64,000 nucleotides of DNA, taken from the IMG/VR virus record IMGVR_UViG_3300044991_001618, positions 32,001 to 96,000 of that record; one strand, given 5' to 3'. The translations under genes were made by a program, and so were the position numbers. The notes beneath the pieces were generated by a model that was given only the letters and a program-made list of their open reading frames with translations, did no database searches and was not told the origin of the DNA. Source of the DNA: a virus. Shown here one piece after another: positions 1-27,501 of the stretch; position 1 is the first letter of the stretch; each line of letters starts with the position of its first letter.

Positions 1-746
1 AAATTGGTGAGGTTTCTTTTGATTTACAATCAGTTACTGTTTCAGTTACAGAAAGAAAGTTAAGAGCACAATGGTCACCAGAAATGGCACAAGACGTTGC
101 TGCATTCCATAACATTGATGCTGAAGCAGAATTAACTGCTTTATTATCAGAGCAAATTGCAGCTGAGATTGATAGAGAAATTTTAAGAGACCTTAGAAAA
201 GGTGCTGCTTGGAATTTACGTTGGGATTACAATGGTTGGAAGAGATTGGGTACAAACGCTATCCCTTACACACAGAAAGACTGGAATCAAACATTAATCA
301 CAACTATTAACCAAGTATCAGCACAAATCCACAAATCAACATTGAGAGGTGGTGCAAACTGGATTGTTGTTTCTTCTGAAGTTAGTGCAATTTTTGATGA
401 TTTGGAATACTTCCACGTATCAAATGCATCTCCTGACCAAGACCAATACAACATGGGTATTGAAAGAGTTGGTACATTAGCAGGTCGTTACCAAGTATAT
501 CGTGACCCTTACTTCCCAGCAAACCAAGTGTTAATGGGACACAAAGGAACATCATTATTAGACACTGGTTATATCTATGCACCATATGTACCATTACAAT
601 TAACACCAACAATGTATAATCCATTCAACTTTACACCAATTAAAGGTATAATGACAAGATATGCTAAAAAACTAGTTAACAACCGTTTCTACGGTAGAAT
701 TACGGTTGATGGTGTTAGAACATTTGACTTACAAGAGTTAAGATAA
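1..746 (+). CDS. T4 gp23-like major capsid protein, C-terminal part (5' end outside window)
   Basis: Frame open from nt 3 (IGEVSFDLQSVTVSVTERKLRAQWSPEMAQD...DAEAELTALLSEQIAAEIDREI...GANWIVVS...YAPYVPL...FTPIKGIMTRYA), which are typical gp23 motifs; strong terminator follows. Confidence 0.93.
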   Translation, partial: IGEVSFDLQSVTVSVTERKLRAQWSPEMAQDVAAFHNIDAEAELTALLSEQIAAEIDREILRDLRKGAAWNLRWDYNGWKRLGTNAIPYTQKDWNQTLITTINQVSAQIHKSTLRGGANWIVVSSEVSAIFDDLEYFHVSNASPDQDQYNMGIERVGTLAGRYQVYRDPYFPANQVLMGHKGTSLLDTGYIYAPYVPLQLTPTMYNPFNFTPIKGIMTRYAKKLVNNRFYGRITVDGVRTFDLQELR

Positions 747-2503: not shown

Positions 2504-2535
2504 CAAATATACTACAAGTTGAATTAAATAGCAAA
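2504..2535 (-). promoter_or_regulatory. Bacteroidota primary-sigma promoter (-33/-7)
   Basis: Minus strand TTTG-N20-TATATTTG, matching consensus TTTG...TAnnTTTG. Confidence 0.75.
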
Positions 2536-3090
2536 TTCTGTTTCATCCCAATCAGGATCCTCATTTAATATAATACCTTTAATATATCCAGGTTTAACCA
2601 TTTTTTTTAATTGATTTTCAGTGTATTTGGTTAATTTTGTGTAAGTTATGTTTATTCCATCATCAACTTTCAATCCTTTTGGTAATGATTGTAATTTGTA
2701 ACAATGATTTAAATATAATGTACCATTAACTTTTAATCCTTCTGGTAATGATTCAAGTTTTTCACAGCCATATAAATCCAAATCACCCCCAACTTTCAAT
2801 AGTTCTGGTAATGATTTTATATTTGAATGTTCTAAAGATAACTCGCCCCCAACTTCCAAGTCTTCTGGTAATGAAGTTATTTTTGAATAATCTAAATTCA
2901 AATTGCCACTAACTTTCAATCCTTCTGGTAATGAAGTTATTTTAAAATTTGATAAATCCAAATCATCATTAACAATTAAATCTTCTTTTGTTAATGGTGA
3001 ACCATTTGTTATTTTCCATAAAAATGGAATTTTTGTACCATCTAACTTTTCAATAAAATTAAATATATTCTTTAGTGTTTCTTTTTCCAT
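2524..3090 (-). CDS. LRR array protein 1 (5 repeats, extended C-terminus)
   Basis: MEKETLK N-cap, LPxGLxV repeats, MVKPGYI C-cap. Confidence 0.9.
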   Translation of the reverse strand: MEKETLKNIFNFIEKLDGTKIPFLWKITNGSPLTKEDLIVNDDLDLSNFKITSLPEGLKVSGNLNLDYSKITSLPEDLEVGGELSLEHSNIKSLPELLKVGGDLDLYGCEKLESLPEGLKVNGTLYLNHCYKLQSLPKGLKVDDGINITYTKLTKYTENQLKKMVKPGYIKGIILNEDPDWDETEFAI

Positions 3091-3494
3091 TATCTAATTA
3101 TATTATTTATATATCCAGGATTAACCATTTGCCTTAATTCCTCAGTTGAATATTTTGTTAATGGTGTATTTTTAATAAACAAACGACCCCAAACTTTCAA
3201 CCCTTTTGGTAATGATGTTATATTTGAATGTCCCAAATCCAAATCCTCCCCAACTTTTAATCCTTCTGGTAATGATTGTATATTTTTACAACCATATAAA
3301 CTTAAAATATCCTCAACGTTCAATCCATCTGGTAATGATTCAATATCTGTTTCTGTTAAATCCAAATCCCCTTCAACAAATAACTCTTCATCTGTTAATG
3401 GTTCATTATTCATTAATTTCCACATAAATGGTTTATCCTTATTTTCTTCTTCTTCAAGGAATGTAAATATCTTTTTTAGTGTTTCTTTTTCCAT
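3090..3494 (-). CDS. LRR array protein 2 (3 repeats)
   Basis: Same architecture; TAATG overlap with neighbours. Confidence 0.9.
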   Translation of the reverse strand: MEKETLKKIFTFLEEEENKDKPFMWKLMNNEPLTDEELFVEGDLDLTETDIESLPDGLNVEDILSLYGCKNIQSLPEGLKVGEDLDLGHSNITSLPKGLKVWGRLFIKNTPLTKYSTEELRQMVNPGYINNIIR

Positions 3495-4141
3495 TATCTT
3501 TCTATATTTCCAAGTATAAATCCTGGTTTAACCATTTTTCTTAATTCATTATCTGAAAATTTTGCTAACCCAGAGTCGTGAATGGCCAAATTACCATAAA
3601 CCTCCAACCCTTTTGGTAATGAAGTTAAATTTTTGCAACGCATTAAATCTAACAATCTATTAACTTTTAATCCTTTTGGTAAAAATCCTATCTCTGAATC
3701 CTCCAAAGATAATATACCAACTTCCATTCCTTCTGGTAATGATTCCAAATATGGGGTGGTATTTAAATTTAATTCACCTTCAATTTTTAATCCTTTTGGT
3801 AATGATTGTATTTGTGTATATGATAAATCCAAATCTAATTTAACTTTTAATCCTTTTGGTAATTTTCTTATTTCTGTATAATTTAAAACTAAATGCCCTC
3901 CAACTTCCAATCCTTCTGGTAATGATTTAATATCTGAATTTTGTAAAAACAAATCACCTTCAACTTTCAATCCTTCTGGCAATTCTTCTATCTCTAAATC
4001 TGATAAATTCAAATCACCTTTAACATGTAAATCATCTTCTGTGAATGGAAAACCATTTGACCATTTCCACCTAAGTGGCGTATTCCTATTATCCTTCTTT
4101 TCAAGGAAATTAAATATCTTCTTTAATGTTTCTTTTTCCAT
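3494..4141 (-). CDS. LRR array protein 3 (7 repeats)
   Basis: Same architecture; TAATG overlap. Confidence 0.9.
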   Translation of the reverse strand: MEKETLKKIFNFLEKKDNRNTPLRWKWSNGFPFTEDDLHVKGDLNLSDLEIEELPEGLKVEGDLFLQNSDIKSLPEGLEVGGHLVLNYTEIRKLPKGLKVKLDLDLSYTQIQSLPKGLKIEGELNLNTTPYLESLPEGMEVGILSLEDSEIGFLPKGLKVNRLLDLMRCKNLTSLPKGLEVYGNLAIHDSGLAKFSDNELRKMVKPGFILGNIER

Positions 4142-4605
4142 TATCTATATATATATCTATTTAAAAAACTAGGCTCAACCATTTTTATTAATTCATCATC
4201 TGAAAATTTTGCTAATGGTGTTCCACCAATAAACAAATTTTGCCCAACTTTCAATCCTTTTGGTAATGATGCTATTTCAGAGTAGGATAAATCCAAATCA
4301 ACCCCAACTTCTAATCCTTCTGGCATAGAAGTTATTCTTGTGTTTGATAAATCTAAATGTCTCCCAACTTTCAATCCTTTTGGTAATGATTTAATATCAG
4401 AAAATTGTAAATACAAGTCACCTTCAACATATAAATTATCTGGCAATGTTTCTATCCCTGAATCTGAAAAATCCAAATCACCTTTAATATGCAAATCATC
4501 TTCTGTTAATGGTTCACCACTTGACCATTTCCATAATAATGGTGCTCTTATTTCATCATTCTTTTCAAGAAATTTAAATATCTTCTTTAATGTTTCTTTT
4601 TCCAT
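4141..4605 (-). CDS. LRR array protein 4 (4 repeats)
   Basis: Same architecture; TAATG overlap. Confidence 0.9.
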   Translation of the reverse strand: MEKETLKKIFKFLEKNDEIRAPLLWKWSSGEPLTEDDLHIKGDLDFSDSGIETLPDNLYVEGDLYLQFSDIKSLPKGLKVGRHLDLSNTRITSMPEGLEVGVDLDLSYSEIASLPKGLKVGQNLFIGGTPLAKFSDDELIKMVEPSFLNRYIYR

Positions 4606-4608
4606 TAT

Positions 4609-5031
4609 CTATCCTTTCTTCCACTTTCCACCCAATTTCTTATACCTTTTTGCCGCAGCACCATTACAATATGCGCTTGGGCATACTTTATACCTAGACC
4701 TTGCCCAACTCAAACATTGACTCCATAACTTGGGATTTGTTGGTTTATTCTTTTTTTCCTTTGCTTCTGTTATGTTCTGGCTATCCCTATTTTCAAATTC
4801 ATTCATCATAAAATCAAAAACTTGATCCAAGTTTTCTTTTGCAACTGTCACATGGTCATCAGCCCAATCATGGCCATTGGTCAACAATTCATTAATTTCA
4901 TCAGGTTGAAATTCAAGCAATAATTCACATTGTCTTTTAATTTGTTTTAAGTTTCCAAAAAACATATAATTTTCTGTTGCTTGCTCATTTATTGCATTCT
5001 TAACAATTTTTTTAATTACTGGATGTATCAT
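4609..5031 (-). CDS. Conserved viral hypothetical protein with C-terminal DUF5872-like basic domain
   Basis: PTNPKLW...PSAYCNGAAAKRYKKLGGKW motif; N-terminal NYMFFGNL...HDWADDH domain. Confidence 0.6.
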   Translation of the reverse strand: MIHPVIKKIVKNAINEQATENYMFFGNLKQIKRQCELLLEFQPDEINELLTNGHDWADDHVTVAKENLDQVFDFMMNEFENRDSQNITEAKEKKNKPTNPKLWSQCLSWARSRYKVCPSAYCNGAAAKRYKKLGGKWKKG

Positions 5032-5046
5032 ATCTTATTTTTTATT

Positions 5047-5053
5047 ATAAATA
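5047..5053 (-). promoter_or_regulatory. Candidate late promoter core TATTTAT
   Basis: 15 nt before ATG 5031; would drive LRR genes 1-4. Confidence 0.5.
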
Positions 5054-5170
5054 TCATTATTCTTTATTTTGATTATGGCTCTCATATTTTGATTTTAAGG
5101 GACTTTTTGTTTTAGCCTATTACTATGTCATCTTTATTAAAATCTGCTGTTGTGGTTAAATTGTATGTGG

Positions 5171-5710
5171 TTATATCCTAATTATTCTACCTATACGCCC
5201 AGGTTTAACCATTTCTCTTAATTCAGCATCTGAAAATTTGTCTAAACTATCTCCAACACTCACGGCTAAATATCCATTAACTTCCAATCCTTTTGGTAAT
5301 CTTTTTATTGGTGTATCCATTATTGATAACCAAAGGTCAATTACTAGCCCTTCTGGTAATGAAGTTATTTTTGTATTATGCAAATACAAAGAAGCACCAA
5401 TTTTAATATCATTTGGTATGTTTTTTATAATTGAATGCGATAACTCCAGAGAACCATCAACTTTTAACCCTTTTGGTAATTCTTCTATTTTTGAAAATCT
5501 AGTAATCATTCTACCTTTAACTTCCAAATTATCTGGTAATGATTTTAAAGTTGAATCTGTTAAATCTAAATCACCATTAACAATTAAATCTTCTTTTGTT
5601 AGGGGATCACCAAGTTTTAATTTCCAAATAAAGGTATCTCTATCTTTATGTTTTTTGTTTTCTTTCTTTTCAAGGAAATCAAATATATTTTTTATTGCTT
5701 CTTTTTCCAT
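5171..5710 (-). CDS. LRR array protein 5 (5 repeats)
   Basis: Same architecture; first 25 aa identical to protein 6. Confidence 0.9.
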   Translation of the reverse strand: MEKEAIKNIFDFLEKKENKKHKDRDTFIWKLKLGDPLTKEDLIVNGDLDLTDSTLKSLPDNLEVKGRMITRFSKIEELPKGLKVDGSLELSHSIIKNIPNDIKIGASLYLHNTKITSLPEGLVIDLWLSIMDTPIKRLPKGLEVNGYLAVSVGDSLDKFSDAELREMVKPGRIGRIIRI

Positions 5711-6318
5711 TATCTAATTATTTGCTCCTTTATAAATCCAGGTTTAACCATATTTCTTAATTCTTCATCAGAAAATTTTACTAATGGTGATCCACTTATA
5801 ATTAAAATCCCCCTAACTTTCAACCCTTTTGGTAATGATGTTAAACTTGTGCAATTTTCTAAATACAAATCACGGCCAACTTCCAATCCTTCTGGCAAGG
5901 ATGTTAAACTTGTGCAATTTTCTAAATCTAAATTATGCGCAACTTTCAATCCTTTTGGTAAAGATATTAAATTTGTGGAATTTTCTAAATATAAAGACGC
6001 TCCAAGTTCTAATCCTCTTGGCAGTGAAATTAAATCTTCACAACCTTCTAAATCTAAACGACCCCCAACTTTTAAGTTATCAGGTAATGATTTAATAGAT
6101 GAATAATTTAAAATCAAATAACCACCAACTTTCAACCCATCTGGTAATGAGGTTATTTTTGAATATGATAAATCCAAATTACCTTTTACATTTAACTCTT
6201 CTTCTGTTATTGGTTCATCAAATTTTAATTTCCAAATAATGCTATCCCTATCTTTATGTTTTTTATTTTCTTTCTTTTCAAGGAAATCAAATATATTTTT
6301 TATTGCTTCTTTTTCCAT
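5710..6318 (-). CDS. LRR array protein 6 (6 repeats)
   Basis: Same architecture; internal duplicated LENCTSLTS repeat. Confidence 0.9.
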   Translation of the reverse strand: MEKEAIKNIFDFLEKKENKKHKDRDSIIWKLKFDEPITEEELNVKGNLDLSYSKITSLPDGLKVGGYLILNYSSIKSLPDNLKVGGRLDLEGCEDLISLPRGLELGASLYLENSTNLISLPKGLKVAHNLDLENCTSLTSLPEGLEVGRDLYLENCTSLTSLPKGLKVRGILIISGSPLVKFSDEELRNMVKPGFIKEQIIR

Positions 6319-6797
6319 TATCTAATTATTTTACCATTTATAAACCCATCTGGTTCAACCATTTCTCTTATTTTTTCATCTGAAAGTTTTGCTAATGGAG
6401 TTTTTACAATATGTAAATTACGTTCAACTTTTAAACCTTTTGATAATGTTTCTATATCTGAATATGTTAAATCTAAATCGCGACCAACATATAAATCACC
6501 TGGCAAGGATTTGAAACTTGTCCATTCAAAATTCAAATCACCCTCAACAAATAATTTTTCTGGGAATGTTTTTAAACTTGAGAACCGAAAATCAGCATTT
6601 CCTATAACTTTTAACCCTTTTGGTAAATGTTGTATATTTATGCCAGATATATCCAAATCGCCTCTAACAATTAAATCTTCTTTTGTTAATGGTTCATTAA
6701 ACATAAATTTCCACCTTAAAGTTCCTTTGTTTTTATGTTTTTTATTGTCTTCTTTTTCAAGAAAATCAAGTATATTTTTTAGTGTTTCTTTTTCCAT
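6318..6797 (-). CDS. LRR array protein 7 (4 repeats)
   Basis: Same architecture. Confidence 0.9.
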   Translation of the reverse strand: MEKETLKNILDFLEKEDNKKHKNKGTLRWKFMFNEPLTKEDLIVRGDLDISGINIQHLPKGLKVIGNADFRFSSLKTFPEKLFVEGDLNFEWTSFKSLPGDLYVGRDLDLTYSDIETLSKGLKVERNLHIVKTPLAKLSDEKIREMVEPDGFINGKIIR

Positions 6798-7267
6798 TAT
6801 CTAATTATATTTCCTTTAAATGAACCATTATTTAAATTTTTATTTCTTCTTATTTCAGCATCTGTATATTTTTTGGCAAGGAAGGATTCTCCTATATATA
6901 AATTACCACCAACATATAAATTTTTTGGGATTTCTTCTATATCTGAATGTCTAAAATACAAATCACCCCCAACATATAAATTGTCTGGTAATGATTCTAT
7001 ATTTGTATGGGATAAGTTAAAACTATCCTTAACATATAACCCTTCTGGTAATGAGTTTATTTCTGATCCCAACAACCACAATTTACCTTCAACTCTCATC
7101 CCATTAGGTAATGAGGTTATAGTTGTAAATTCCAAATTTAAATTGCCTTTTATATTTAAATCCTCTTTTGTTAGTTCATTATTTACCCATTTCCATAAAA
7201 ATGGTGTTTTGATATCATCATTTTCTTCAAGGAAATCAAATATTCTTTTTAATGTTTCTTTTTCCAT
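6797..7267 (-). CDS. LRR array protein 8 (4 repeats)
   Basis: Same architecture; C-cap shared with protein 9. Confidence 0.9.
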   Translation of the reverse strand: MEKETLKRIFDFLEENDDIKTPFLWKWVNNELTKEDLNIKGNLNLEFTTITSLPNGMRVEGKLWLLGSEINSLPEGLYVKDSFNLSHTNIESLPDNLYVGGDLYFRHSDIEEIPKNLYVGGNLYIGESFLAKKYTDAEIRRNKNLNNGSFKGNIIR

Positions 7268-7740
7268 TATCTAATTATATTTCCTTTAAATGAACCATTA
7301 TTTAAATTTTTATTTCTTCTTATTTCACCATCTGTATATTTTTTGGCGAGGGGGGTCTCTTCTATATCTAATTCACCACCAACGTATAAATTTTTTGGTA
7401 TTTCTCCTATATTTGAATATTTAAACCATAAATCACCCCCAACATATAAATTGTCTGGTAATGATTCAATATATGTATGTGATACATCCAAACTACCCTT
7501 AACATATAGCCCTTCTGGTAATGTTTTTATTGCTGATGCAAATAATGACAAATCACCTTGAACTCTCAATCCCTCTGGTAATGAGGTTATTGCTGAATGA
7601 TTTAAAATTAAATCCCCATCAAAATTTAATTCATCTTCTGTAAATGGGTGATTAATTTTTACTTTATAAGCAAAAGGTTTTGGTCTATTTTCCTCTTTCT
7701 CAAGGAATTCAATTATTTTTTTTAATGTTTCTATTTCCAT
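7267..7740 (-). CDS. LRR array protein 9 (4 repeats)
   Basis: Same architecture; N-cap like protein 11, C-cap like protein 8. Confidence 0.9.
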   Translation of the reverse strand: MEIETLKKIIEFLEKEENRPKPFAYKVKINHPFTEDELNFDGDLILNHSAITSLPEGLRVQGDLSLFASAIKTLPEGLYVKGSLDVSHTYIESLPDNLYVGGDLWFKYSNIGEIPKNLYVGGELDIEETPLAKKYTDGEIRRNKNLNNGSFKGNIIR

Positions 7741-8279
7741 TACTCTCTTAATATTCCTTTTATAAATCCAGGTTTAACCATTTCTTTTAATTCAGCATTA
7801 GAAAATTTGGATAAACTATCATTACTATTTAAAACTAAATAACCCTTAATTATCAATCCTTTTGGTAATGAAGTTATTTTTGTTTTCTGCAAATACAAAG
7901 AACCACCAATTTCAATATCATCAGGTATATTTTTTATTTTTGAGTTCCTTAAATTCAAATTACCACCAACTTTCAATCCTTTTGGTAGTGATTCTATATT
8001 TGAACTTGCTAAAGATAAATAATCCCCAACTTCTAACCCTTCTGGTAATGAGACTATTGCCGAACAACCCATTAAATTAACCCAACCCTTAACTCTTAAT
8101 CCTTCTGGTAATGATGTTACTTTTGTATATGATAATTCCAAATTACCATTAATATTTAATTCATCATATGTTAATTCATTAAATATAACCTTCCATTTAA
8201 AACTACCTTTATCTCGGGGCATTTTATTTTCTTCCTTTTCAAGAAAATCAAGTATTTTTTTAAATGTTTTATTTTCCAT
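7740..8279 (-). CDS. LRR array protein 10 (5 repeats)
   Basis: Same architecture; C-half resembles protein 5. Confidence 0.9.
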   Translation of the reverse strand: MENKTFKKILDFLEKEENKMPRDKGSFKWKVIFNELTYDELNINGNLELSYTKVTSLPEGLRVKGWVNLMGCSAIVSLPEGLEVGDYLSLASSNIESLPKGLKVGGNLNLRNSKIKNIPDDIEIGGSLYLQKTKITSLPKGLIIKGYLVLNSNDSLSKFSNAELKEMVKPGFIKGILRE

Positions 8280-8282
8280 TAT

Positions 8283-8696
8283 CTACATATTTCCTATTAT
8301 TTCTCCTATATAACCATTTGGCTTTATCATATTCAATAATTCATTGTCTGAAATTTCTGTAAATTTTGTTCTGTAAATATATAAACTACCCCCAACTTTC
8401 AAGTCTTTTGGTAATGAGGTTAAACCCCAACACCCAGCTAACCATAAATTACCCTCAACTTCCAATCCTTCTGGTAATGTTTTTATATCTGAGTCTGTTA
8501 AATCTAAAACACGCCCAACTTTCAATCCTTCTGGTAATGAAGTTATTTTAAAATTTGATAAATCCAAATTACCTTCAATATTTAAATCTTTTTCTGTTAA
8601 GGGTTCATTATTTTTTACTTTATAAGCAAAAGGTTTTTTTCTATTTTCTTCCTTCTCAAGGAATTCAAGTATTCTTTTTAATGTTTCTTCTTTCAC
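8283..8696 (-). CDS. LRR array protein 11 (3 repeats, GTG start)
   Basis: Same architecture; GTGA overlap with protein 12. Confidence 0.88.
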   Translation of the reverse strand: MKEETLKRILEFLEKEENRKKPFAYKVKNNEPLTEKDLNIEGNLDLSNFKITSLPEGLKVGRVLDLTDSDIKTLPEGLEVEGNLWLAGCWGLTSLPKDLKVGGSLYIYRTKFTEISDNELLNMIKPNGYIGEIIGNM

Positions 8697-9289
8697 AATC
8701 TTGATATTTTTTCTTTTATAAATCCAGGATAAACCATTTCTCTTAATTGTCCATCTGTGTATTTTCGTAATGGGGTATTTTCTATATACAATACCCCCCT
8801 AACTTCTAACCCTTTTGGTAATGATGTTATTTTTGTATCTTTTAAATTCAAATATTTACCAACTTTTAATCCTTCTGGTAGTGAAATTAAATCTTTGCAA
8901 GAATATAAATCCAAAAAACCCCTAATTTTTAAGTCATTAGGTAATGAACTAATGGATGTATAATTTAAATGCAAATTACCACCAACTTTCAATCCTTTTG
9001 GTAATGAGGTTATTTTTGAATATGCTAAAAACAAATGCTTCCCAACTTTTAATCCTTCTGGTAATGATTGTATTCTTGAAAATGTTAAAATTAAGTCCCC
9101 CTCAACTTTTAACCCTTCTGGTAATGATTCTATACTTGAGTACATTAAATTCAAATCATCTTTTATATTTAATTCATCTTTTGTTAATGGTTTATTAAAT
9201 AATAACTTCCACCTTAAATTATTTTTAGGTATTACCCCTTCCTTTTCTTCAAGAAAATCAAGTATTTTTTCAATTGTTTCTTTTTCCAT
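8693..9289 (-). CDS. LRR array protein 12 (6 repeats)
   Basis: Same architecture. Confidence 0.9.
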   Translation of the reverse strand: MEKETIEKILDFLEEKEGVIPKNNLRWKLLFNKPLTKDELNIKDDLNLMYSSIESLPEGLKVEGDLILTFSRIQSLPEGLKVGKHLFLAYSKITSLPKGLKVGGNLHLNYTSISSLPNDLKIRGFLDLYSCKDLISLPEGLKVGKYLNLKDTKITSLPKGLEVRGVLYIENTPLRKYTDGQLREMVYPGFIKEKISRL

Positions 9290-9996
9290 TATCTAACTAT
9301 TTTTCCTTTTATAAATCCAGGTTGAATCATCTTTCTTAATCTATAATTACTAATTTCATCTAAATGGGAAAGATTCAACATTATAGATCCATAAACTTTC
9401 AATCCTTTTGGTAATGAGGTTAAATCTGTTAGTCTTAAATCCAAATCACCACCAACTTTTAAACCTTCTGGCAATGATTGTATATTTTTACAACCAAATA
9501 ACACCAAATCTTTCCTAACTTCAAGTCCTTCTGGTAATGAAGTTATTTTTGTATTATTTAAAACTAAATGCCCTCCAACTTTCAATCCTTCTGGTAATGA
9601 AGTTATTTTTGTATTATTTAAATACAAATCCCTACCAACTTTCAATCCTTTTGGTAGCAAGGTTATATCTGTATTAGATGAAAACAAATCACCACCAACT
9701 TCCAATCCTTCAGGTAATGATGTTATTTTTGTTGAACCTAAATTCAAATTACCCCCAACTTTCAAACCTTCTGGCAATGAGGTTATTTTTGATCTTCTTA
9801 AATCGAAATTACCACCAACTTTCAAACCTTCTGGTAATGAGGTTATTGTTGTTTCATAAAACCACAAATTACCTATAACATCTAAATCTTCTTTGGTTAT
9901 TGGCTCATTATTTAATATTTTCCATTTAAATGGTGCTCTATGTTCTCCTTTCTCTTCAAGGAATTCAAATATTCTTTTTAATGTTTCTTTTTCCAT
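9289..9996 (-). CDS. LRR array protein 13 (8 repeats)
   Basis: Same architecture; most homogeneous repeats. Confidence 0.9.
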   Translation of the reverse strand: MEKETLKRIFEFLEEKGEHRAPFKWKILNNEPITKEDLDVIGNLWFYETTITSLPEGLKVGGNFDLRRSKITSLPEGLKVGGNLNLGSTKITSLPEGLEVGGDLFSSNTDITLLPKGLKVGRDLYLNNTKITSLPEGLKVGGHLVLNNTKITSLPEGLEVRKDLVLFGCKNIQSLPEGLKVGGDLDLRLTDLTSLPKGLKVYGSIMLNLSHLDEISNYRLRKMIQPGFIKGKIVR

Positions 9997-10003
9997 TATC
10001 TAA

Positions 10004-11506
10004 TTATTTTTTATTTATAATAAAAAAGTGCAATTGTTTTTTATAAGTGGTAATCTCCCCAGCAATTTGAACCTTTAAATCAACAAAATATTTATTTGGT
10101 ATTTTATCTCTTGTGTCAAAATTAAAATAATATTCATTTGGTGTTCTGTTAAATTCTGTCCAATCTTGAACTTGAACTTGGGTTTCCCCCTCCTTAACAT
10201 AAACACGATAAAATCCTTTAATGTTTGTTAATAATTCACTTGTGCTATATGCTTTTTTAATTATAACCCCAATCTTTCTAACATCAGTATTGAGTATTTT
10301 TTCCCCTTGCATAATGTTATAGAAATCAAAATTATATGTTTCACTTTCTGTTGTCTTTGTTCCAGTTTTAATTCGATTATTTACATCATATAATACAAAT
10401 TCATTTTCAACATTGGGTAATGTAATTCCATTTAAGGTCATCCCACTCCAAACATCAGTAAATACCATAGGTGCTGTATATCCACTAAATACATTTGGTA
10501 CAGATACCTCATACACACCCTTGGTAATTAATTTTGTTGATAAGTTTGTGCAACCAGTAACAACATTCCCATCATTGTCAAATATATTAACAATTGGATT
10601 GTTATCCAAATTTGAATACGAATCTTCATCTGTTACATAAAGATATAATTTATTTACCCTATTCTTAACAAAATTATTTCTATCATCCTTAATCAAATCA
10701 TCATAAGTTGTTAATAGATAAGGTTCATAAAATGTCTGGGTGTGCCTTGAAAAAAAGCCAACAGAATAGCTTTCCGTTAACCCTGTTGCATTTTCATAAG
10801 ATGGGGTATAAGCAATGCCCCAACCAGAATAAGATGTGGTAGAACCGCTTAAAATGGCGTTTATTTCATTTGTCATGTTAAATGAAACATCTTCATTACC
10901 AAATTCAAAATGTTTGGTATCAAGAATGGTCAATCCGCTATAATTAACATTTCCCGTATTTTTATTGTTATAAATACCAGGTTCAGTCCATCCGCTTAAT
11001 GTTTGAGCATTATACCAATTTGAGGGGGTTGATGCAAATGAATTATCATTCTTTATAACTAGGGGATATTTCGCCCCTGACCCTGAATTTAAGTTTTTTG
11101 AATAATCTGTATAATCATAACCTACACCTTCATCCCAATTTTGAACATACCCTGTGCTACCACTACTCAATGGAATTCTAAATAAAACCAAATCAAAGGA
11201 AGATGCTCTACGTTTTTGATTTGGCATTTTCCCATTTAATAAGGATTCATCAAAAGATGCTGAATTTTTTAAGACTAATGTATGTGTGACACTTGACAAT
11301 GAACCGCTAAAAATGATATCATCATTAACTTTATCAATTAGAGGTTCTAAATCTAAATCAAAAATTAGCCTTGTTGGTCCATATGCTGGGATTAAGTAAT
11401 CTGTTGCACCATAAGTTAATTCAATAACAGGGTTTCTACCTGTATTTATTTTTGAATTTGCAATTAAAGTGTTGTTTCTATTAAAATAAGATAGATGAAT
11501 TGACAT
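10004..11506 (-). CDS. Putative virion structural protein
   Basis: 500 aa, S/T/G/N-rich beta-type composition, next to spike gene, TATTTAT upstream. Confidence 0.55.
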   Translation of the reverse strand: MSIHLSYFNRNNTLIANSKINTGRNPVIELTYGATDYLIPAYGPTRLIFDLDLEPLIDKVNDDIIFSGSLSSVTHTLVLKNSASFDESLLNGKMPNQKRRASSFDLVLFRIPLSSGSTGYVQNWDEGVGYDYTDYSKNLNSGSGAKYPLVIKNDNSFASTPSNWYNAQTLSGWTEPGIYNNKNTGNVNYSGLTILDTKHFEFGNEDVSFNMTNEINAILSGSTTSYSGWGIAYTPSYENATGLTESYSVGFFSRHTQTFYEPYLLTTYDDLIKDDRNNFVKNRVNKLYLYVTDEDSYSNLDNNPIVNIFDNDGNVVTGCTNLSTKLITKGVYEVSVPNVFSGYTAPMVFTDVWSGMTLNGITLPNVENEFVLYDVNNRIKTGTKTTESETYNFDFYNIMQGEKILNTDVRKIGVIIKKAYSTSELLTNIKGFYRVYVKEGETQVQVQDWTEFNRTPNEYYFNFDTRDKIPNKYFVDLKVQIAGEITTYKKQLHFFIINKK

Positions 11507-11517
11507 TTTTTTATTTA

Positions 11518-11524
11518 ATAAATA
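11518..11524 (-). promoter_or_regulatory. Candidate late promoter core TATTTAT
   Basis: 11 nt before ATG 11506; would also drive LRR genes 5-13. Confidence 0.5.
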
Positions 11525-13033
11525 TCAATTAATCCTAATTTTTTTGTTTAATATTTTTGTTGTTGCAAGTGAAAACTCACGTAATAGATTTTGAATTGTT
11601 GATCCATCTTCTGTAACAGAAACTGGTGCCTCCCCGGGAAATGGATGTGCATGTGTAACCAAAAATCTAATGATTAAATTAATCAATTCAAGAAGTTCTT
11701 CTCCCCTAATAATTGAAGATGTATTGGGGTCAATACTATCAACAATTTTATCATTATCAATACCATATAAAGTATCTGTTAAATCAATTTTGGATTTGTT
11801 AGGTGAAGGAGTAGTATTGTGGCTTAATAAATAAATTGTGTCAGCACCAATTAAAGCAGATGAATTTTCTTCGTTTATTATTGTATTACCAATAACAACA
11901 CCACTTTCAGTAAAAGTAGGAACAATTGTACTATCTTTTGAATAAATAAATCCTGAACCCCTTTTATTTGAAAATTTATCAAACTTTATTTCATTATATA
12001 TGTCAATAACATTTGTAGATGGTGTTTTAGATAAAAATGTTCCACTCAATCTTAAATAAGTTGAATATCCTGGTCTAAAAAATATTGGGAATTTTATTTC
12101 ATTTTCAAAAAATAATTGTGTTCCATCATCAAGTTTTACACCTGAATTGCATTTTTGAATAAAATCATTAATAAATTTAATTGTATTTTCTTTACTTAAT
12201 TGATTAAACTTAACCCTACATCTAAATATTTTTAAATCATCAATAGTACTATTAATATCCAAATTTTTAATAGCTACTCTTTCATTTTGAATTAAATTAT
12301 ATAAATTAATAAATCCATCAAATTTATCATTTGTAGCATCAGGATTTTGGATAACCCATTCAATCAAGAATTTTGTTCCTAATGTTTTTTCTCTTTCAAG
12401 TTCAATAACTTCTGGGGGATTTTTTACTTTCCTTGATTTAAACTGTGATACTTGAACAAATGACCTATTATAATTTGGTGTAGGAAACTCATTTGGATTC
12501 ATTGACCCCTTGTATTTACCTGCCCTAATTATAACATCATCCTCTTTAACTAAAATGTCAGATGATCCCCTACCAATAATACCAGTATCATTAGGTTCAA
12601 CAAATATGCCTTTAACTTTTGATTTCCTATATGAACCATCAAGATTTTTTAATGTTAATGTTCTTTTAAATCTTCTACCTGAACCAGTTAATATACGAGA
12701 TTCTGTCACAGTATTAGAATCCGCTCGCATAGGAGAATTAAAATCAGATTGAATATAATATTGATTATCAAACTTAAAATCTTTATTTGCATAAATAACC
12801 AATATTCTTTCTCCAGCACTCAAGGGAGCATTTATATAATAAGGCAATAATGGTTTAAATATGAAAGGATCCCTATCCCCCCAGATGTCTGTTTTTTCAT
12901 TAAAATTTGGGTTACTAATTGAATTTAATATATCATCATTTCTATCTGAATCAACCCTAGCCCTAACCCTATTTAATCCTAATGGGTCTTCAATATCAAT
13001 TATCTCCGCTGGAAATAGTACTCTATTGTCCAT
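11525..13033 (-). CDS. Baseplate hub/spike protein (gp5/VgrG-type N-terminal OB fold, C-terminal HxH tip)
   Basis: IIDIEDPLGLNRVRAR N-terminal motif; C-terminal RGEEL...THAHPFPG. Confidence 0.75.
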   Translation of the reverse strand: MDNRVLFPAEIIDIEDPLGLNRVRARVDSDRNDDILNSISNPNFNEKTDIWGDRDPFIFKPLLPYYINAPLSAGERILVIYANKDFKFDNQYYIQSDFNSPMRADSNTVTESRILTGSGRRFKRTLTLKNLDGSYRKSKVKGIFVEPNDTGIIGRGSSDILVKEDDVIIRAGKYKGSMNPNEFPTPNYNRSFVQVSQFKSRKVKNPPEVIELEREKTLGTKFLIEWVIQNPDATNDKFDGFINLYNLIQNERVAIKNLDINSTIDDLKIFRCRVKFNQLSKENTIKFINDFIQKCNSGVKLDDGTQLFFENEIKFPIFFRPGYSTYLRLSGTFLSKTPSTNVIDIYNEIKFDKFSNKRGSGFIYSKDSTIVPTFTESGVVIGNTIINEENSSALIGADTIYLLSHNTTPSPNKSKIDLTDTLYGIDNDKIVDSIDPNTSSIIRGEELLELINLIIRFLVTHAHPFPGEAPVSVTEDGSTIQNLLREFSLATTKILNKKIRIN

Positions 13034-15651: not shown

Positions 15652-16386
15652 TTAAACAATTTTATTTATAATAAAAATATAAAGAGATTTAAATTTCTTT
15701 AACGAAACTCGAATCTCTTTAGTTGTTAAGTTTGTCATTTCACGCAATGACAACAAAATTAAATTTTTATTAAACTTTGAATTATCTGTTGCTGTAAATA
15801 TTGTTTCATATTTTTCAAAAACATCTATTAATGCTAATCCTAATTTTCTTTCATTATCAGTTAAAGATTGGGTTTCAACAAAATCTTTTAGTTTAATAGT
15901 ATATTCAACAATAATTAAATCTAAATCAACCACATCATCATCTATGTTATATAACATATCTGGGCGTTCTTCTATTGATGCTGAAATATCTTCATAAGAT
16001 ACCTTTCTGTTGGTTTCTTTTTGGTCTTTTAATATTTGACCCATCAAATAATTTTTACATATCGTACCAAAGTATGAATATGCTTTTTTATTTTTGGATG
16101 GTTTAAATTTATCTACTTTGGTCATAAGAAAAGAATGAACATCAGTATGAATCTCATTGAAGTCCATATCTTTTCTATATAACCTGTATCGTCTAATTAT
16201 TGACGATATCATTTTATCTAAAGGCTTTCTAAGAAATTGGTTGTATATTTTGTTTTTTTCATGTAAAGTATTTGCTGTTAGAAAATCTACAACAGCCTTT
16301 TCTTCCCTTATGTCAAAATAGTTTTCTTTTGGGGTTTTCTTTGTTTTCTTAGTATCATCTATTACATCAATAGTTTGGGTTGTCAT
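15652..16386 (-). CDS. Phage sigma factor, T4 gp55-like (late transcription)
   Basis: Region-2-like KVDKFKPSKNKKAYSYFGTICKNYL (cf. gp55-family FDPEKSxNPFAYFTQI). Confidence 0.7.
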   Translation of the reverse strand: MTTQTIDVIDDTKKTKKTPKENYFDIREEKAVVDFLTANTLHEKNKIYNQFLRKPLDKMISSIIRRYRLYRKDMDFNEIHTDVHSFLMTKVDKFKPSKNKKAYSYFGTICKNYLMGQILKDQKETNRKVSYEDISASIEERPDMLYNIDDDVVDLDLIIVEYTIKLKDFVETQSLTDNERKLGLALIDVFEKYETIFTATDNSKFNKNLILLSLREMTNLTTKEIRVSLKKFKSLYIFIINKIV

Positions 16387-17192
16387 TAAGAATTTTGAAT
16401 TTCGTACTTTATTTTTCTATCAGTTGTAAAAAAATATTCTTTTTTAGCAGTTTGAAGCCAAAATTTAACTTCATCTTCAGTAATTTTATTATCATCATAC
16501 TTATAATTCCAAAATATTGACCCCTCCCTTAAATTGGTATGTTTATATCCCAATCTTGGTATTGTCATAACTGATGTTGAATTATAAGTTAACCTCAATA
16601 AAAATTCATAACTAAATGTTAATTTTATTGATGGCTTAAATCCACCTGTGCTAATAAATATATCCTTTTTCAAAATAATTCCAGAAGTTTGAAAATTTTG
16701 ATATTCTTGTAGGATGTCATTTGTTAAAACTCCCATTTCTTGGGTGAAATTTGCCGCAAATGTTGCTTCATTTGTAAAACCAGCAAATGTTTCTTTTGCA
16801 TCAACATCAACAACAACAGGTAAAAATGCCCCATATTCAGGATAAACTTCTGCATACTTTTTAAAATTCTTAAACCAAATATTTGAATACTCATCATCAA
16901 ATTCAAATAATGAAATCCATTCTGATGAAGCGTTTTCAACGCCATAATTAATTTGCTCACAATAATTTGGTTCAGAATCCCAAGCTAATTTTTTAACATT
17001 AATAGATTTAAAATCATATTCATTTAAATATTTAACAAGAGAATCTTCTTTTGTATGGATAATAACCAATTCATCAAAATCATTTTCTTGTTTCTCCAAT
17101 GACGCAATTGCTTTGGTGAAAAACATATCAAAGTCTTTAACTTTTGATGATTTAATTGGTAATATAATTGATAGTGATAATTTTTTGCTCAT
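16386..17192 (-). CDS. Glycosyltransferase family 2
   Basis: LSIILPI start, NYGVENASSEWISLFEFDD, TGGFKPSI. Confidence 0.8.
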   Translation of the reverse strand: MSKKLSLSIILPIKSSKVKDFDMFFTKAIASLEKQENDFDELVIIHTKEDSLVKYLNEYDFKSINVKKLAWDSEPNYCEQINYGVENASSEWISLFEFDDEYSNIWFKNFKKYAEVYPEYGAFLPVVVDVDAKETFAGFTNEATFAANFTQEMGVLTNDILQEYQNFQTSGIILKKDIFISTGGFKPSIKLTFSYEFLLRLTYNSTSVMTIPRLGYKHTNLREGSIFWNYKYDDNKITEDEVKFWLQTAKKEYFFTTDRKIKYEIQNS

Positions 17193-17193
17193 T

Positions 17194-18240
17194 TTATAAT
17201 TTGTTTAGTTGCTCTTGAAATGCGTTTATTCTATTATCAAAATATGAATTAAAACAATTGATAACTGTTGATGTGAATTTATCCTTATCTTTATACATAT
17301 TAGATGTCTTTTCTATCTCTTCATATAGTTCAGGTGTTATACTGTCTTCCAACCAATTCTGAATAAATTCGGCAATATAATCAACCATTTTTAATTTGTC
17401 TTGTATCCAAATGCCGTTTTTATCATTCATCCATTCAGGTATTAAATCTGGTATTCTACCAATAACTGGAATACCACAAGCCATAGATTCTAATGGATAT
17501 GTTCCAAAACCACTAATATCATCAATCCAAACGCTTAAAAAACAATTCTTTAAAGAATTAGCAAATTCACTTTGGCTAAGACCCCTCATATCCCTAAATG
17601 TGAACCACCTAAATTGGGGGTATTTTAAATAAAATTGTTTAACAATATTAATTGTATCAGTCTGCTCTCTTGTGTGAACAGCAATAATTGGCATTGGGGG
17701 TACTTTTGGTTTATCAAATAAATCTGAAATTACTGGGGTAATAATGTCATAAGACATTTTCTTCATATATGAATCTAGTTCATCCTTTTGTTTTTCAGAA
17801 GTTGTTATACATTTTAAAAATCCTAATGAAGGCCAACTTTGCCCTGGTTGTAATGTATCTAAAACATAAGAGTAAGATTGCATCAATACAATTTTACCAC
17901 AAGGCAAATCTTTTATTTGTTCCATAATAAATCCATATATTTCTGGAAGTACAATAAAATCTTCTGGACTAATTTCCAAATTCTCCCCCTCAATTGAACG
18001 GTGGGGTAATGAGGTCATATAACTTTCGTCAAGCCAAGAAGCAACACCTGAATAATCTTTCTTTTCGTGTAATATAATAGGATTGAAGCCGTTATCTTTT
18101 AATGATAATGCCACATCGTATATATATTTTATGGATGCCCTAGCATTTCCTTTTGTGTCTTGAGCCACAAAATAAATCCTTGATTTCTTATCTTTTAAGA
18201 TATTTAAAGAATTTTCAATTTTTGGTTTAATATCATTCAT
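17194..18240 (-). CDS. GT-B (GT4-like) glycosyltransferase
   Basis: GFGTYPLESMACGIPVIG motif. Confidence 0.75.
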   Translation of the reverse strand: MNDIKPKIENSLNILKDKKSRIYFVAQDTKGNARASIKYIYDVALSLKDNGFNPIILHEKKDYSGVASWLDESYMTSLPHRSIEGENLEISPEDFIVLPEIYGFIMEQIKDLPCGKIVLMQSYSYVLDTLQPGQSWPSLGFLKCITTSEKQKDELDSYMKKMSYDIITPVISDLFDKPKVPPMPIIAVHTREQTDTINIVKQFYLKYPQFRWFTFRDMRGLSQSEFANSLKNCFLSVWIDDISGFGTYPLESMACGIPVIGRIPDLIPEWMNDKNGIWIQDKLKMVDYIAEFIQNWLEDSITPELYEEIEKTSNMYKDKDKFTSTVINCFNSYFDNRINAFQEQLNKL

Positions 18241-18241
18241 G

Positions 18242-18520
18242 TTAATATTTGTTTATTATCTTTTTGTTTAATAATGTATTAAATGCCAATTTAAATGGTA
18301 GAGTCAAGTTATTACCTGAACTTAATCCAAGTTTTTCATCAATGTCATCATTCTCTGTTAGAATAACATCTAACATTAGTTTTACAAGTTCATATTTTAT
18401 AATATTTATTTTTGTATCTGTTGTACCTGTTATTTCTATTGATGCAACTTCTGTCATATCAACATACTTTTCAACAATATCTAAATCAACATAATAATGT
18501 TCTCCTAAAATTTTTAACAT
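18242..18520 (-). CDS. Hypothetical protein
   Basis: 92-aa ORF in operon. Confidence 0.6.
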   Translation of the reverse strand: MLKILGEHYYVDLDIVEKYVDMTEVASIEITGTTDTKINIIKYELVKLMLDVILTENDDIDEKLGLSSGNNLTLPFKLAFNTLLNKKIINKY

Positions 18521-19816: not shown

Positions 19817-19850
19817 TAAGTTGTTTTTATTTAATAATAAATAATAGGAA

Positions 19851-21741: not shown

Positions 21742-21746
21742 ATAAA

Positions 21747-27088: not shown

Positions 27089-27498
27089 AAAATAAAAGTT
27101 TTATCAAATTCTTGTCCTTCATAAGGACCTGTTTTATATTCATATACTAATGTGTTATCTTCTAATATTTCATAATTATGCCCACCTTCTAATGTAAATG
27201 ATGCATCACCAAAATATAAAATTTCTGTTGTTAAAATTGAATCATCAATATCGTAAAATATACATTTGACGCTCCCTTGTAATACCACCCAACTTTCTTG
27301 TGCAATTACATTTCTAGTTCTTTCTTTCCAAATATGTTTATGTGGTTTAAATGTTGTACCCTTAGTTAAATTTAATTTTGAACATTGGATAAAGTTATCC
27401 CCAGATATTATATCTTCTCTTCCTGGGGTTATTTCATTTTTTCTAACTATTATGTGTAGTAGTTTAGTTTCATTAATTTTTGAATATATCTTTTTCAT
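27085..27498 (-). CDS. Cupin-fold (WbuC-like) protein
   Basis: PHKH...QESWVVLQG...GGH...EYKTGPY. Confidence 0.7.
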   Translation of the reverse strand: MKKIYSKINETKLLHIIVRKNEITPGREDIISGDNFIQCSKLNLTKGTTFKPHKHIWKERTRNVIAQESWVVLQGSVKCIFYDIDDSILTTEILYFGDASFTLEGGHNYEILEDNTLVYEYKTGPYEGQEFDKTFIL

Positions 27499-27501
27499 TT
27501 T

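Follow-up and report, generated by a model that had tools for sequence, protein, structure and literature searches.

Giant eukaryotic viruses have well-known families of repeat-protein binders. The poxvirus ANK/PRANC proteins, the LRR/ANK/F-box proteins of mimivirus and klosneuvirus and the AaV DUF285 proteins are lineage-specific expansions to tens of paralogs, in which one scaffold carries variable binding surfaces together with constant terminal modules; their hosts are eukaryotes, and they often hijack ubiquitin ligases. In lamprey VLRs variable LRR modules stand between two caps and the variability falls at concave-strand positions, the genes being assembled somatically from cassettes and the proteins having Cys-rich LRRNT/LRRCT caps and 24-residue units. 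Among bacterial proteins, the IpaH/SspH/SlrP (NEL) type III effectors have short bacterial-type LRRs whose concave face selects the target protein, and FlrP of Vibrio alginolyticus (PDB 8z5u/8z5w/8z60) is periplasmic, carries a Sec signal (M1-A19) and binds the flagellar rod (bioRxiv 10.64898/2025.12.04.692373). The internal proteins of T4 are diverse and non-conserved, having in common only a capsid-targeting propeptide of 10-19 residues that gp21 cuts after L/I-X-E, and one of them, IPI*, inhibits a restriction enzyme (PMC9026906, PMC3012670); targeting to the T4 capsid works without cleavage (PMC9026906). In the Goslar DUF7941 family a constant N-module is joined to variable CBM, GH or LRR domains (bioRxiv 10.64898/2026.04.21.720040).

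The locus described here belongs to a 112,963-bp fragment of an uncultured T4-like jumbo phage (a record 36% complete), of which the window is a stretch of 64,000 nucleotides. The record holds 33 members of an LRR family in four arrays, one of them the 13-gene array of the window, and the count in a 270-kb relative is at least 35. Whereas the comparable families of large DNA viruses occur in viruses of eukaryotes, this one is encoded by a bacteriophage and is built from a 20-residue bacterial repeat. Like FlrP, the phage proteins repeat the unit LPxGLxVxGxLxLxxTxI in a small single-domain solenoid, but FlrP, a bacterial protein, is present in single copy and carries a Sec signal, whereas in the phage there are dozens of diversified paralogs that lack a signal peptide and have their own N- and C-caps. 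Unlike the NEL effectors they have different caps, lack that secretion signal and carry no NEL or other enzymatic domain (a Pfam search of the window LRR proteins found no domains besides the repeats), although a long and distant metagenomic relative of the phage repeats (P0125) is fused to a NEL domain. Unlike VLR genes, they are complete and inherited, and they encode caps without disulfide motifs and units of 20 residues. The original prediction that no phage system of this kind had been described agrees with the literature searched, but it does not extend to single family members, for which UniProt already has entries named 'Leucine-rich repeat [uncultured Caudovirales phage]'. The preferred reading, to which a probability of about 0.5 is assigned, is that of a repertoire of binders, inherited in the germline and produced with the virion, and possibly packaged and injected in the manner of T4 internal proteins.

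Organization of the 13-gene array

The ORF listing of the window contains 13 intact minus-strand LRR ORFs at 2524-9996, all with a common N-cap and C-cap, as had been predicted. The array, in which gene 13 is transcribed first, and the features around it are as follows; L001 is a relative whose flanks are 79-87% identical to those of the window array at the DNA level.

11518..11525, minus strand: promoter-like motif ATATTTAT, 19 nt upstream of the 500-aa gene
10004..11506, minus strand: 500-aa gene, 7 nt upstream of LRR gene 13
9289..9996, minus strand: LRR gene 13, 235 aa, 8 repeats; transcribed first; L001 ortholog 96% identical (aa)
8693..9289, minus strand: LRR gene 12, 198 aa, 6 repeats; no ortholog in L001
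8283..8696, minus strand: LRR gene 11, 137 aa, 3 repeats, GTG start; missing in L001
7740..8279, minus strand: LRR gene 10, 179 aa, 5 repeats; missing in L001
7267..7740, minus strand: LRR gene 9, 157 aa, 4 repeats; missing in L001
6797..7267, minus strand: LRR gene 8, 156 aa, 4 repeats; L001 ortholog 94% (aa)
6318..6797, minus strand: LRR gene 7, 159 aa, 4 repeats; L001 ortholog 86% (aa)
5710..6318, minus strand: LRR gene 6, 202 aa, 6 repeats, mainly 21-aa Cys units; L001 ortholog 98% (aa)
5171..5710, minus strand: LRR gene 5, 179 aa, 5 repeats; L001 ortholog 74% (aa)
5032-5170: spacer of 139 nt between LRR genes 4 and 5
5047..5054, minus strand: promoter-like motif ATATTTAT in that spacer, 23 nt upstream of the 140-aa gene start
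4609..5031, minus strand: non-LRR 140-aa ORF without repeats, between LRR genes 4 and 5
4141..4605, minus strand: LRR gene 4, 154 aa, 4 repeats; missing in L001
3494..4141, minus strand: LRR gene 3, 215 aa, 7 repeats; L001 ortholog 95% (aa)
3090..3494, minus strand: LRR gene 2, 134 aa, 3 repeats; L001 counterpart 176 aa, 5 repeats, 62% identity
2524..3090, minus strand: LRR gene 1, 188 aa, 5 repeats, long acidic C-terminal tail; L001 ortholog 84% (aa), 182 aa
63758..64000, plus strand: start of array 4 (10 genes), which continues past the window end

At 8 of the 13 junctions upstream of LRR genes the sequence is AGATAATGG, in which stop and start overlap as TAATG, and no terminator-like sites were found within the array. 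The description of the array as one coupled set holds for these junctions; it is broken by the spacer and by the 140-aa ORF, whose sole Pfam match is a weak one to DUF5872 (E 0.006, below threshold). A block of DNA common to LRR genes 8 and 9 is 87% identical between them.

Repeat fold and location of the variable sites

Each protein consists of a conserved N-terminal leader and cap, 3-8 LRR turns of twenty residues, and a conserved C-cap. A regex parse returned 5,3,7,4,5,6,4,4,4,5,3,6,8 repeats for genes 1-13, a series identical to that first reported, and the accompanying length rule of ~75+20n aa is reproduced by the distances of ~52 aa ahead of the first SLP anchor and ~42 aa from the last SLP anchor to the protein end. 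The 119 units of the record (91 of 20 aa and 28 of 21 aa, the latter a Cys-containing variant) fit L12-x-L14-x-x-[T/S/C]17-x-I19, the core pattern of an LRR. Positions L2, P3, L6, V8, L12, L14 and I19 are near-invariant, and column entropy exceeds 3 bits only at positions 11, 13, 15, 16 and 18, the x of xLxLxxTx, where free variation had been proposed. Unit-to-unit identity is lowest at these variable positions (13%), higher at other exposed sites (33%) and highest in the scaffold (81%); Tyr, Trp, Phe and His make up 21% of residues at variable positions vs 4% at other exposed ones.

Structure prediction yields a confident capped solenoid, as which the proteins are predicted to fold: the AF2 model of LRR gene 13 has pLDDT 94.2 and pTM 0.86, with one strand at L12-x13 in every unit. 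The best Foldseek match is 8z5u_0, which is Vibrio FlrP (35% identity, TM 0.82 by target), followed by the LRR domains of SspH1, IpaH, SlrP and VLR; 16 PDB chains match at E<=1e-3, and every one among those listed is an LRR protein. FlrP is also the best sequence match when the family profile is run against the PDB (hmmsearch, E 2e-34), a search that also picks up SspH1, IpaH and SlrP; VLR structures are weak matches by both methods, and giant-virus LRR proteins are among the weaker BFVD matches. Matches to the curated Pfam models LRR_1, LRR_4, LRR_8 and LRR_3 all fall below gathering thresholds, three proteins having no match; the LRR models are short and the repeat subtype is divergent. The LRR assignment therefore rests on the predicted structure and the PDB profile search.

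Since the units align in register with designed and natural LRRs in the HMM comparison and DSSP places the strand of the AF2 model at L12-x13, the variable sites can be located on the concave face, as originally proposed. By this register and model, the hypervariable sites are the canonical concave-strand positions 3, 5, 7, 8 and 10 of LxxLxLxxNxL, and both paralogs and repeats differ mainly on the predicted concave beta-strand face. Judging by its fusions elsewhere to the NEL E3 ligase domain, to PcfJ-like domains and to YbaB, the repeat type serves in other proteins as a target-recognition module. It is likely that the LRR family is a binder repertoire; the suggestion that its targets are host defence proteins is a tentative one, and so is that of receptors, the other original proposal.

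Gene neighbourhood and proposed timing of expression

The motif ATATTTAT is present, 19-34 nt ahead of the start codon, in 20 upstream regions out of 54, against an expectation of 1.05. It precedes the prohead protease gene, an acidic scaffold-like gene, the tail sheath gene and arrays 1 and 4, and is found as well ahead of the 500-aa gene that precedes gene 13 and of the 140-aa gene within the array; the copy at the 500-aa gene probably drives LRR genes 13 to 5. All arrays stand behind the promoter-like motif, which virion genes carry upstream as well. Because many genes of unassigned function lie behind the motif too, late timing is read solely from the structural genes that share it, and on balance it is somewhat favoured that the LRR proteins are made late, with the virion genes.

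The head module is of T4 type (Peptidase_S77, E 2.5e-24; Gp23, E 8e-75; portal, large terminase and tail sheath). In each of the four genomes checked, an LRR sub-array stands directly after the prohead protease gene and before the capsid gene. Array 3 adjoins baseplate-like genes, not head genes, and the 13-gene array comes straight after a gene for which the nearest neighbours with annotation are baseplate hub proteins (Phage_base_V/Gp5_OB); both assignments are leads only. The sole functional lead for the 500-aa gene comes from an ESM-Atlas neighbour cluster, 14% of whose members have CBM96 (score 0.94).

Leader and possible packaging

The internal proteins of T4 (IPI, IPII and IPIII) resemble the LRR family in several respects: both are found in phages that have a head module of T4 type along with an S77 (gp21-like) prohead protease, both are diverse, fast-turnover small proteins with a conserved N-terminal amphipathic leader, and one LRR sub-array lies within the prohead-core gene block. 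Under the preferred reading, the family would supply a set of specific protein binders produced alongside the virion; the likeliest route into the prohead core would be by way of the leader, acting like the T4 capsid-targeting sequence. Packaged LRR proteins would then be ejected together with the DNA at the start of the next infection and would attach to host proteins, defence factors for example, and probably block them. The leader motif IFxF[LI]E[EK] is like the T4 sequence YQEFIAE, a likeness that we take to be one of resemblance only.

There are differences from T4 as well. In T4 unrelated folds share only the tag, whereas the LRR family is a single fold always accompanied by the leader, in a copy number 10x higher. 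Only about half of the members (16 of 33; 6 of the 13 window genes) have an L/I-X-E site among their first 16 residues, the other leaders having none. Among 121 distinct leader-bearing ORFs (113-kb record and 26 related loci) the leader was found on no non-LRR protein, and all 121 carry at least two LRR units; being confined to LRR proteins, it does not act as a portable targeting tag. AF2 renders the leader as a helix (pLDDT 75-81), and may be no more than a part of the LRR N-cap. By analogy with T4, packaging and injection of the LRR proteins is thus conceivable but doubtful.

The leader's lack of a consistent protease site and of portability would be expected if the proteins were binders that are made beside the virion proteins, remain unpackaged and act inside the infected cell, a less likely reading. 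They might shield late phage proteins from abortive-infection sensors, inhibit host enzymes, or serve as adaptors that pass different targets to one common cap-docked partner, following the logic of F-box/LRR and poxvirus ANK-PRANC proteins. The constancy of the caps against the variable faces is in keeping with such roles, as is the part that this repeat type plays as recognition domain in NEL E3 ligases and in the effectors SspH1, IpaH and SlrP. The sequences of the window LRR proteins contain no signal peptide or transmembrane segment, and a test for Sec signals found all N-termini to begin MEKETLKxIFxFLE, charged and without a hydrophobic signal segment. Among cultured phages a single related gene is found, that of Edwardsiella phage Edno5; its place in an early accessory operon, beside a repressor and exo/recT, points to ordinary intracellular expression for that relative. 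Against this reading, a sub-array keeps its place in the head-morphogenesis module, between the genes for the S77 protease and for scaffold and capsid, in four genomes, which is unexpected for ordinary cytoplasmic effectors, and no common partner enzyme was identified beside the arrays.

Less probable again is an external repertoire attached to the virion, in which the caps would dock on baseplate, fibres or capsid and the faces would bind cell-surface or environmental ligands, broadening or tuning host range in the way suggested for the Goslar DUF7941 family. That precedent, the promoter-like motif common to arrays and structural genes, and the neighbours of the window array (the gene with baseplate-hub neighbours and the 500-aa gene with its CBM96 lead, both leads only) are compatible with it, and FlrP shows that this type of LRR functions outside the cytoplasm. 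Yet an adhesin set of some 33 to 45 small paralogs, probably monomers, with pI spanning 4.3 to 9.5, would be unusual. No trimerisation or fibre-attachment domain is recognisable in them, the conserved sub-array is in the head module rather than the tail module, and the orthologs are fairly conserved relative to their flanking DNA.

Turnover and maintenance of the repertoire

The array is not invariant among relatives, a point on which the original prediction depended. L001 has 9 LRR genes against 13; five window genes are missing from it, one gene is extra, and one ortholog has 5 repeats instead of 3. The repertoire thus changes through gene gain, loss and resizing. In 6 of 8 pairs, amino acid identity of orthologs is 74-98%, with flanking DNA only 79-87% identical, and at variable sites orthologs are 91% identical. 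Since orthologs preserve their own face residues, each paralog appears, from these comparisons, to hold its own maintained specificity. Positive selection, which had been set as a test, was not borne out: dN/dS at variable sites is 0.49 (bootstrap 95% CI 0.31-0.74), below 1, and at scaffold sites 0.24 (18 independent close pairs).

These values bear on a further reading, that the genes are head-core fillers or scaffold accessories, or selfishly expanding cassettes, with no individual target specificity. The conserved AGATAATGG junction and the 60-nt periodic DNA repeats are as expected of recombination-prone cassettes, and copy number differs between relatives; but both classes of site are constrained, the diversity is face-specific and rich in typical interface residues, and 13 of 13 genes are intact, which together make this reading very unlikely. 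Hardly credible is a system diversified by active hypermutation or by somatic assembly, on the model of diversity-generating retroelements or lamprey VLRs, for which only the cap-modules-cap plan and the concentration of variability at binding-face positions speak, against genes that are all complete in the germline, the identity of orthologs from other metagenomes (at variable sites included), and searches that found no reverse transcriptase (RVT_1) in the 113-kb record, 36% of the genome, and no template/variable repeat pair. Somatic assembly of an incomplete germline gene was ruled against by the 13 complete two-capped ORFs, with orthologs intact in other metagenomes. The comparison with VLRs that had been drawn earlier accordingly stands for architecture and fails for somatic assembly.

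The family consists of dozens of LRR proteins on one scaffold that differ on the predicted binding face, and it looks like an inherited set of binders.

Array organization and gene architecture

All 13 ORFs of the array (window 2524-9996, minus strand, 134-235 aa) are intact in the ORF listing, and their products have in common an N-terminus, MEKETLKxIFxFLE, that leads into a W/Y-K ... PLTxEDL cap, and a C-terminus, KFSDxELRxMVKPGFIKGxIIR. The repeat units between the caps are spaced 20 or 21 residues apart; anchoring on the xLPxGLxV motif gives 5, 3, 7, 4, 5, 6, 4, 4, 4, 5, 3, 6 and 8 repeats for genes 1 to 13, exactly the counts of the original prediction, and the expected 60/63-nt periodicity is present in the array DNA. 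At 8 of the 13 junctions 5' of LRR genes the sequence is AGATAATGG, in which the stop codon TAA overlaps the following ATG. The earlier description of 13 coupled genes holds for the genes and their coupling, but the array is split between genes 4 and 5 by an unrelated ORF together with a 139-nt spacer, and it is one of four arrays in the 112,963-bp record, which carry 33 family members.

LRR arrays of the record and the ORF interrupting the array under study
Genome 8295-11747: LRR array 1
Genome 26993-28747: LRR array 2
Genome 34524-41996: array under study (third)
Genome 95758-101289: LRR array 4
Window 4609-5031, minus strand: unrelated 140-aa non-LRR ORF between genes 4 and 5

The 140-aa ORF has its own copy of a promoter-like motif, ATATTTAT, and a AGATAATG junction is retained after it; the C-terminal part of its product is basic and contains Cys, with a weak match to DUF5872 (E 0.006, below threshold).

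Fold and location of the variable residues

Pfam LRR models gave matches below threshold only. The LRR fold assignment is nevertheless solid, because an AlphaFold2 model, Foldseek matches and a profile match all support it. The model of gene 13, run with a 24-sequence alignment (pLDDT 94.2, pTM 0.86), has in each unit a short strand at L12-x13 and a second at x7-V8, two helices near the N-terminus (residues 3-15 and 23-28), and a C-cap that is helical. Its top Foldseek match is PDB 8z5u chain 0 (35% identity; target-normalised TM 0.82), which the family profile also matches at E 2e-34; this chain is FlrP of Vibrio, an LRR protein of the periplasm that was described only recently and binds the flagellar rod (bioRxiv 10.64898/2025.12.04.692373). 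The next matches are the LRR domains of SspH1, IpaH1.4/2.5/7.8/9.8 and SlrP, then LRR proteins of Leptospira and the VLRs of lampreys. With its 20 residues the repeat falls into the short class of bacterial LRRs, and structurally FlrP and then the IpaH/SspH LRR domains are nearest to the phage proteins.

Numbering the unit as S1 L2 P3 x4 G5 L6 x7 V8 G9 G10 x11 L12 x13 L14 x15 x16 T/S17 x18 I19 x20, column entropy exceeds 3 bits at positions 11, 13, 15, 16 and 18 only, and L2, P3, L6, V8, L12, L14 and I19 are near-fixed. In the HMM alignment L12-x-L14-x-x-T17-x-I19 falls in register with the canonical LxLxxNxL, and the five variable sites therefore correspond to canonical LRR positions 3, 5, 7, 8 and 10, where residues of the concave strand and of the turn after it face outward. 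The original placement of the freely varying positions on the concave face is thus supported by the predicted mapping, which is based on the LRR register and the DSSP string of the model. Pairwise identity between units is 13% at the variable sites, 33% at other exposed sites (4, 7, 9 and 20) and 81% at scaffold sites, and the share of Tyr, Trp, Phe and His is 21% among variable-site residues versus 4% at the other exposed sites. Since both the lowest identity and the enrichment in aromatic residues and His fall at the variable sites, the diversity appears from the alignments to be specific to one face and not general surface drift.

Array turnover and constraint on the variable face

The closest relative, metagenomic contig IMGVR_UViG_3300032288_003533, is collinear with the window, and its flanking DNA is 79-87% identical. 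Its array has 9 genes versus 13: orthologs of genes 13, 8, 7, 6, 5, 3, 2 and 1 are present (96, 94, 86, 98, 74, 95, 62 and 84% amino acid identity, respectively), genes 4 and 9-12 are missing, and there is one extra gene; the counterpart of gene 2 has 5 repeats versus 3. Because gene number, gene set and repeat number all differ, the array is not invariant, in keeping with the diversified locus proposed at the outset.

Six equal-length ortholog pairs give a dN/dS (Nei-Gojobori) of 0.88 at variable and 0.16 at scaffold sites. Over 18 independent close pairs from all loci the values are 0.49 (bootstrap 95% CI 0.31-0.74) and 0.24 (0.13-0.37); positive selection at the variable sites, named as a test in the original prediction, is not borne out by the former value, which is below 1, the pairwise estimate being a crude one, blind to selection that is episodic or confined to particular sites. 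At the variable sites orthologs have 91% identity, and dN of the binding face is ~2.6 times that of the scaffold. As judged from these sequence comparisons, the predicted binding face remains under net constraint, though it evolves faster than the scaffold. Residues that differ between paralogs and are conserved between orthologs would fit many maintained specificities; neither neutral drift nor a point-mutation arms race fits this pattern. Mechanisms like those of DGRs or VLRs are unsupported, because every gene is complete and no reverse transcriptase was found in the record (36% complete).

In long metagenomic proteins, this 20-residue LRR type is fused to NEL E3-ligase, PcfJ-like or YbaB DNA-binding domains (P0125, P0137, P0148, P0048 and P0123). 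The fold, the face-specific and interface-like variability, the constraint among orthologs and this use of the repeat as a fused recognition module together lead us to predict that the family is a germline repertoire of LRR protein binders.

The phage and the genomic setting of the arrays

The IMG/VR virus record (CheckV completeness 36%, with bases 32001-96000 forming the window; G+C ~28%) encodes a T4-type prohead serine protease (Pfam Peptidase_S77, E 2.5e-24), a Gp23-type major capsid protein (E 8e-75), a portal protein, a large terminase subunit and a 1047-aa tail sheath; because of these genes the phage is a distant T4-like jumbo myophage, and the completeness estimate puts its genome at roughly 300 kb. 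No GenBank phage matched in a DNA search. The related phage genome G001 (270 kb, 90% complete) has seven or more clusters with a total of 62 family-profile matches, and 35 or more of these matches start at the N-cap.

The 8-mer ATATTTAT is found in 20 of 54 upstream regions versus 1.05 expected, and its intergenic, correctly oriented copies lie mostly 19-34 nt 5' of the start codon; in the extended form (T)ATATTTAT(A) it bears what we take to be a loose resemblance to the Bacteroidota -7 element TAnnTTTG. A sigma-70 promoter scan showed no enrichment (76 sites versus 86 expected). The 8-mer precedes the prohead protease, a 594-aa hyper-acidic scaffold-like gene, the tail sheath gene and LRR arrays 1 and 4.

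Promoter-like motifs and ORFs flanking the array
Window 11518-11525, minus strand: (T)ATATTTAT(A), upstream of the 500-aa gene that lies 7 nt ahead of gene 13
Window 5047-5054, minus strand: (T)ATATTTAT(A), upstream of the 140-aa gene inside the array
Genome 26267, 29118 and 105900, plus strand: further copies of (T)ATATTTAT(A)
Window 10004-11506, minus strand: 500-aa ORF; ESM-Atlas lead only, to a phage-protein cluster with CBM96 in 14% of members (score 0.94)
Window 11525-13033, minus strand: 502-aa ORF; ESM-Atlas leads only, to Phage_base_V/Gp5_OB baseplate-hub clusters (scores 0.91 and 0.90)

For the flanking 500-, 502-, 680-, 312- and 128-aa genes, no significant match came from sequence searches of PHROGs, Pfam or PDB. 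Because the motif is common to both sets of genes, array 2 lies directly 3' of the protease stop codon, and no terminator-like site was found inside the array under study, the LRR family appears, judging from motif occurrence, to be co-regulated with virion genes. The order protease, LRR sub-array, capsid gene recurs in G001 and in two further related phage genomes (G003 and G005). In T4 the corresponding part of the genome encodes the prohead core.

The 594-aa protein is encoded between array 2 and the capsid gene (genome 29146-30930, plus strand; L031:11146-12930 in a stretch of the same record). It consists of 29% Asp+Glu and has long runs of the MEDDMD type, after which comes a C-terminal third that is basic and helical; it has no family match and is probably a scaffold. 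The capsid protein itself is 596 aa long (L031:12956-14746, plus strand; window 3-746), and in relatives the match of this protein to the Pfam model is broken into two segments, suggesting that a large domain of ~200 aa is inserted. A tmRNA lies outside the window ~160 nt upstream of array 1 (genome C1:7713-8134, L030:7713-8134 in another stretch of the record, minus strand; Rfam RF00023, 82.6 bits versus a threshold of 47), with a tag peptide predicted by ARAGORN as GNTLETLATLGLVREDAVVAA. The long gene string upstream of the array under study includes a glycan-modification island (window 16386-22745 and 39275-40495, minus strand) with GT2 and GT1 glycosyltransferases, two nucleotide-sugar epimerases and a PhoH-like protein (19085-19816).

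Relatives in databases

Gene 13 matches more than 2000 clusters at 90% identity in metagenomes, and a profile search at E<=1e-3 returned 10,581 representatives, the majority being long proteins of several domains with nothing but the repeats in common. Neither the capped family nor its arrays are described in the papers found by a literature search on phage and jumbo-phage LRR families, and to that extent the claim that no such phage system had been described stands; single members, however, are already in UniProt as 'Leucine-rich repeat [uncultured Caudovirales phage]'. In GenBank phage proteins the sole match is a 247-aa hypothetical protein of Edwardsiella phage Edno5 (MH898687.1; L045:3992-4735, plus strand). 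As it combines seven near-identical units of the same LRR type with an unrelated C-terminal domain, the Edno5 gene represents a different architecture. In bacterial genomes a scan matched the repeat region only, with no caps (Saccharibacteria, a Rhabdochlamydiaceae symbiont, Bacteroides and others), and pointed to no host; a Rhabdochlamydiaceae symbiont of Dictyostelium has at least five copies of the repeat type (L034, L036-L039).

How the predicted binders may be deployed

The internal proteins of T4 are diverse and poorly conserved, with only a 10-19-residue capsid-targeting propeptide in common; the protease gp21 cuts this propeptide after L/I-X-E, the proteins are ejected with the DNA, and one of them, IPI*, inhibits a restriction enzyme (PMC9026906, PMC3012670). 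This is the deployment that we favour for the LRR binders, with a probability of roughly 0.3. Packaging is consistent with the S77 protease, with a sub-array conserved inside the head module, with what looks like co-regulation with virion genes, and with an invariant amphipathic leader (M1, T5, I9, F12, [LI]13) from which a linker of varying length runs to the cap. Also in its favour, I-N-E at residues 58-60 of the capsid protein, followed by AAST, fits a T4-like protease specificity and, on analogy with the processing of gp23, resembles a T4-type maturation site. The estimate is held low because L/I-X-E is patchy, occurring within the first 16 residues in only 16 of 33 leaders (6 of 13 in the array under study), because none of 121 distinct leader-bearing ORFs has the leader on a non-LRR protein, and because the leader, a moderately confident helix in the AlphaFold2 model, may be part of the LRR N-cap.

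There are two serious alternatives. The LRR proteins may be unpackaged intracellular binders or adaptors, in line with the position of the related gene in the cultured phage Edno5, in an early operon with a CI repressor on one side and exo/recT on the other. They may instead be attached to the outside of the particle as a recognition repertoire, on the model put forward for the Goslar DUF7941 family, in which constant N-modules are combined with variable CBM, GH or LRR domains (bioRxiv 10.64898/2026.04.21.720040). Packaging in its fullest form, in which a clade of T4-like jumbo phages uses the one conserved N-terminal leader to pack into its capsid ~35-45 different LRR binders built on one narrow solenoid scaffold and injects them with the DNA against host defence proteins, is an improbable scenario. 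The injected proteins would then act as pre-made, target-specific inhibitors of those defence proteins, and the cocktail would differ from the T4 internal-protein strategy in being greatly expanded and confined to a single scaffold.

Implications

In function, the closest parallels to the phage LRR family are the T4 internal proteins and the paralog families of repeat proteins in poxviruses and giant viruses. Such paralog families are a known strategy in poxviruses and giant viruses, which, if the LRR proteins are specific binders, would extend to bacteriophages. The phage clade would then devote about a tenth of its genome to an evolvable one-scaffold repertoire, in effect a natural library of binding proteins that are small, stable and poor in cysteine; their targets should point to host systems that the phage must neutralise or recognise. 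Being abundant in metagenomes and without a family description in the literature searched, the family is a sizeable block of phage 'dark matter', now with a testable hypothesis. If the proteins are packaged, the internal-protein route of T4 would be able to take a cargo that is both large and diversified, and should they also be injected as inhibitors of host defence proteins, the phages would possess an inherited, modular 'antibody-like' counter-defence repertoire.
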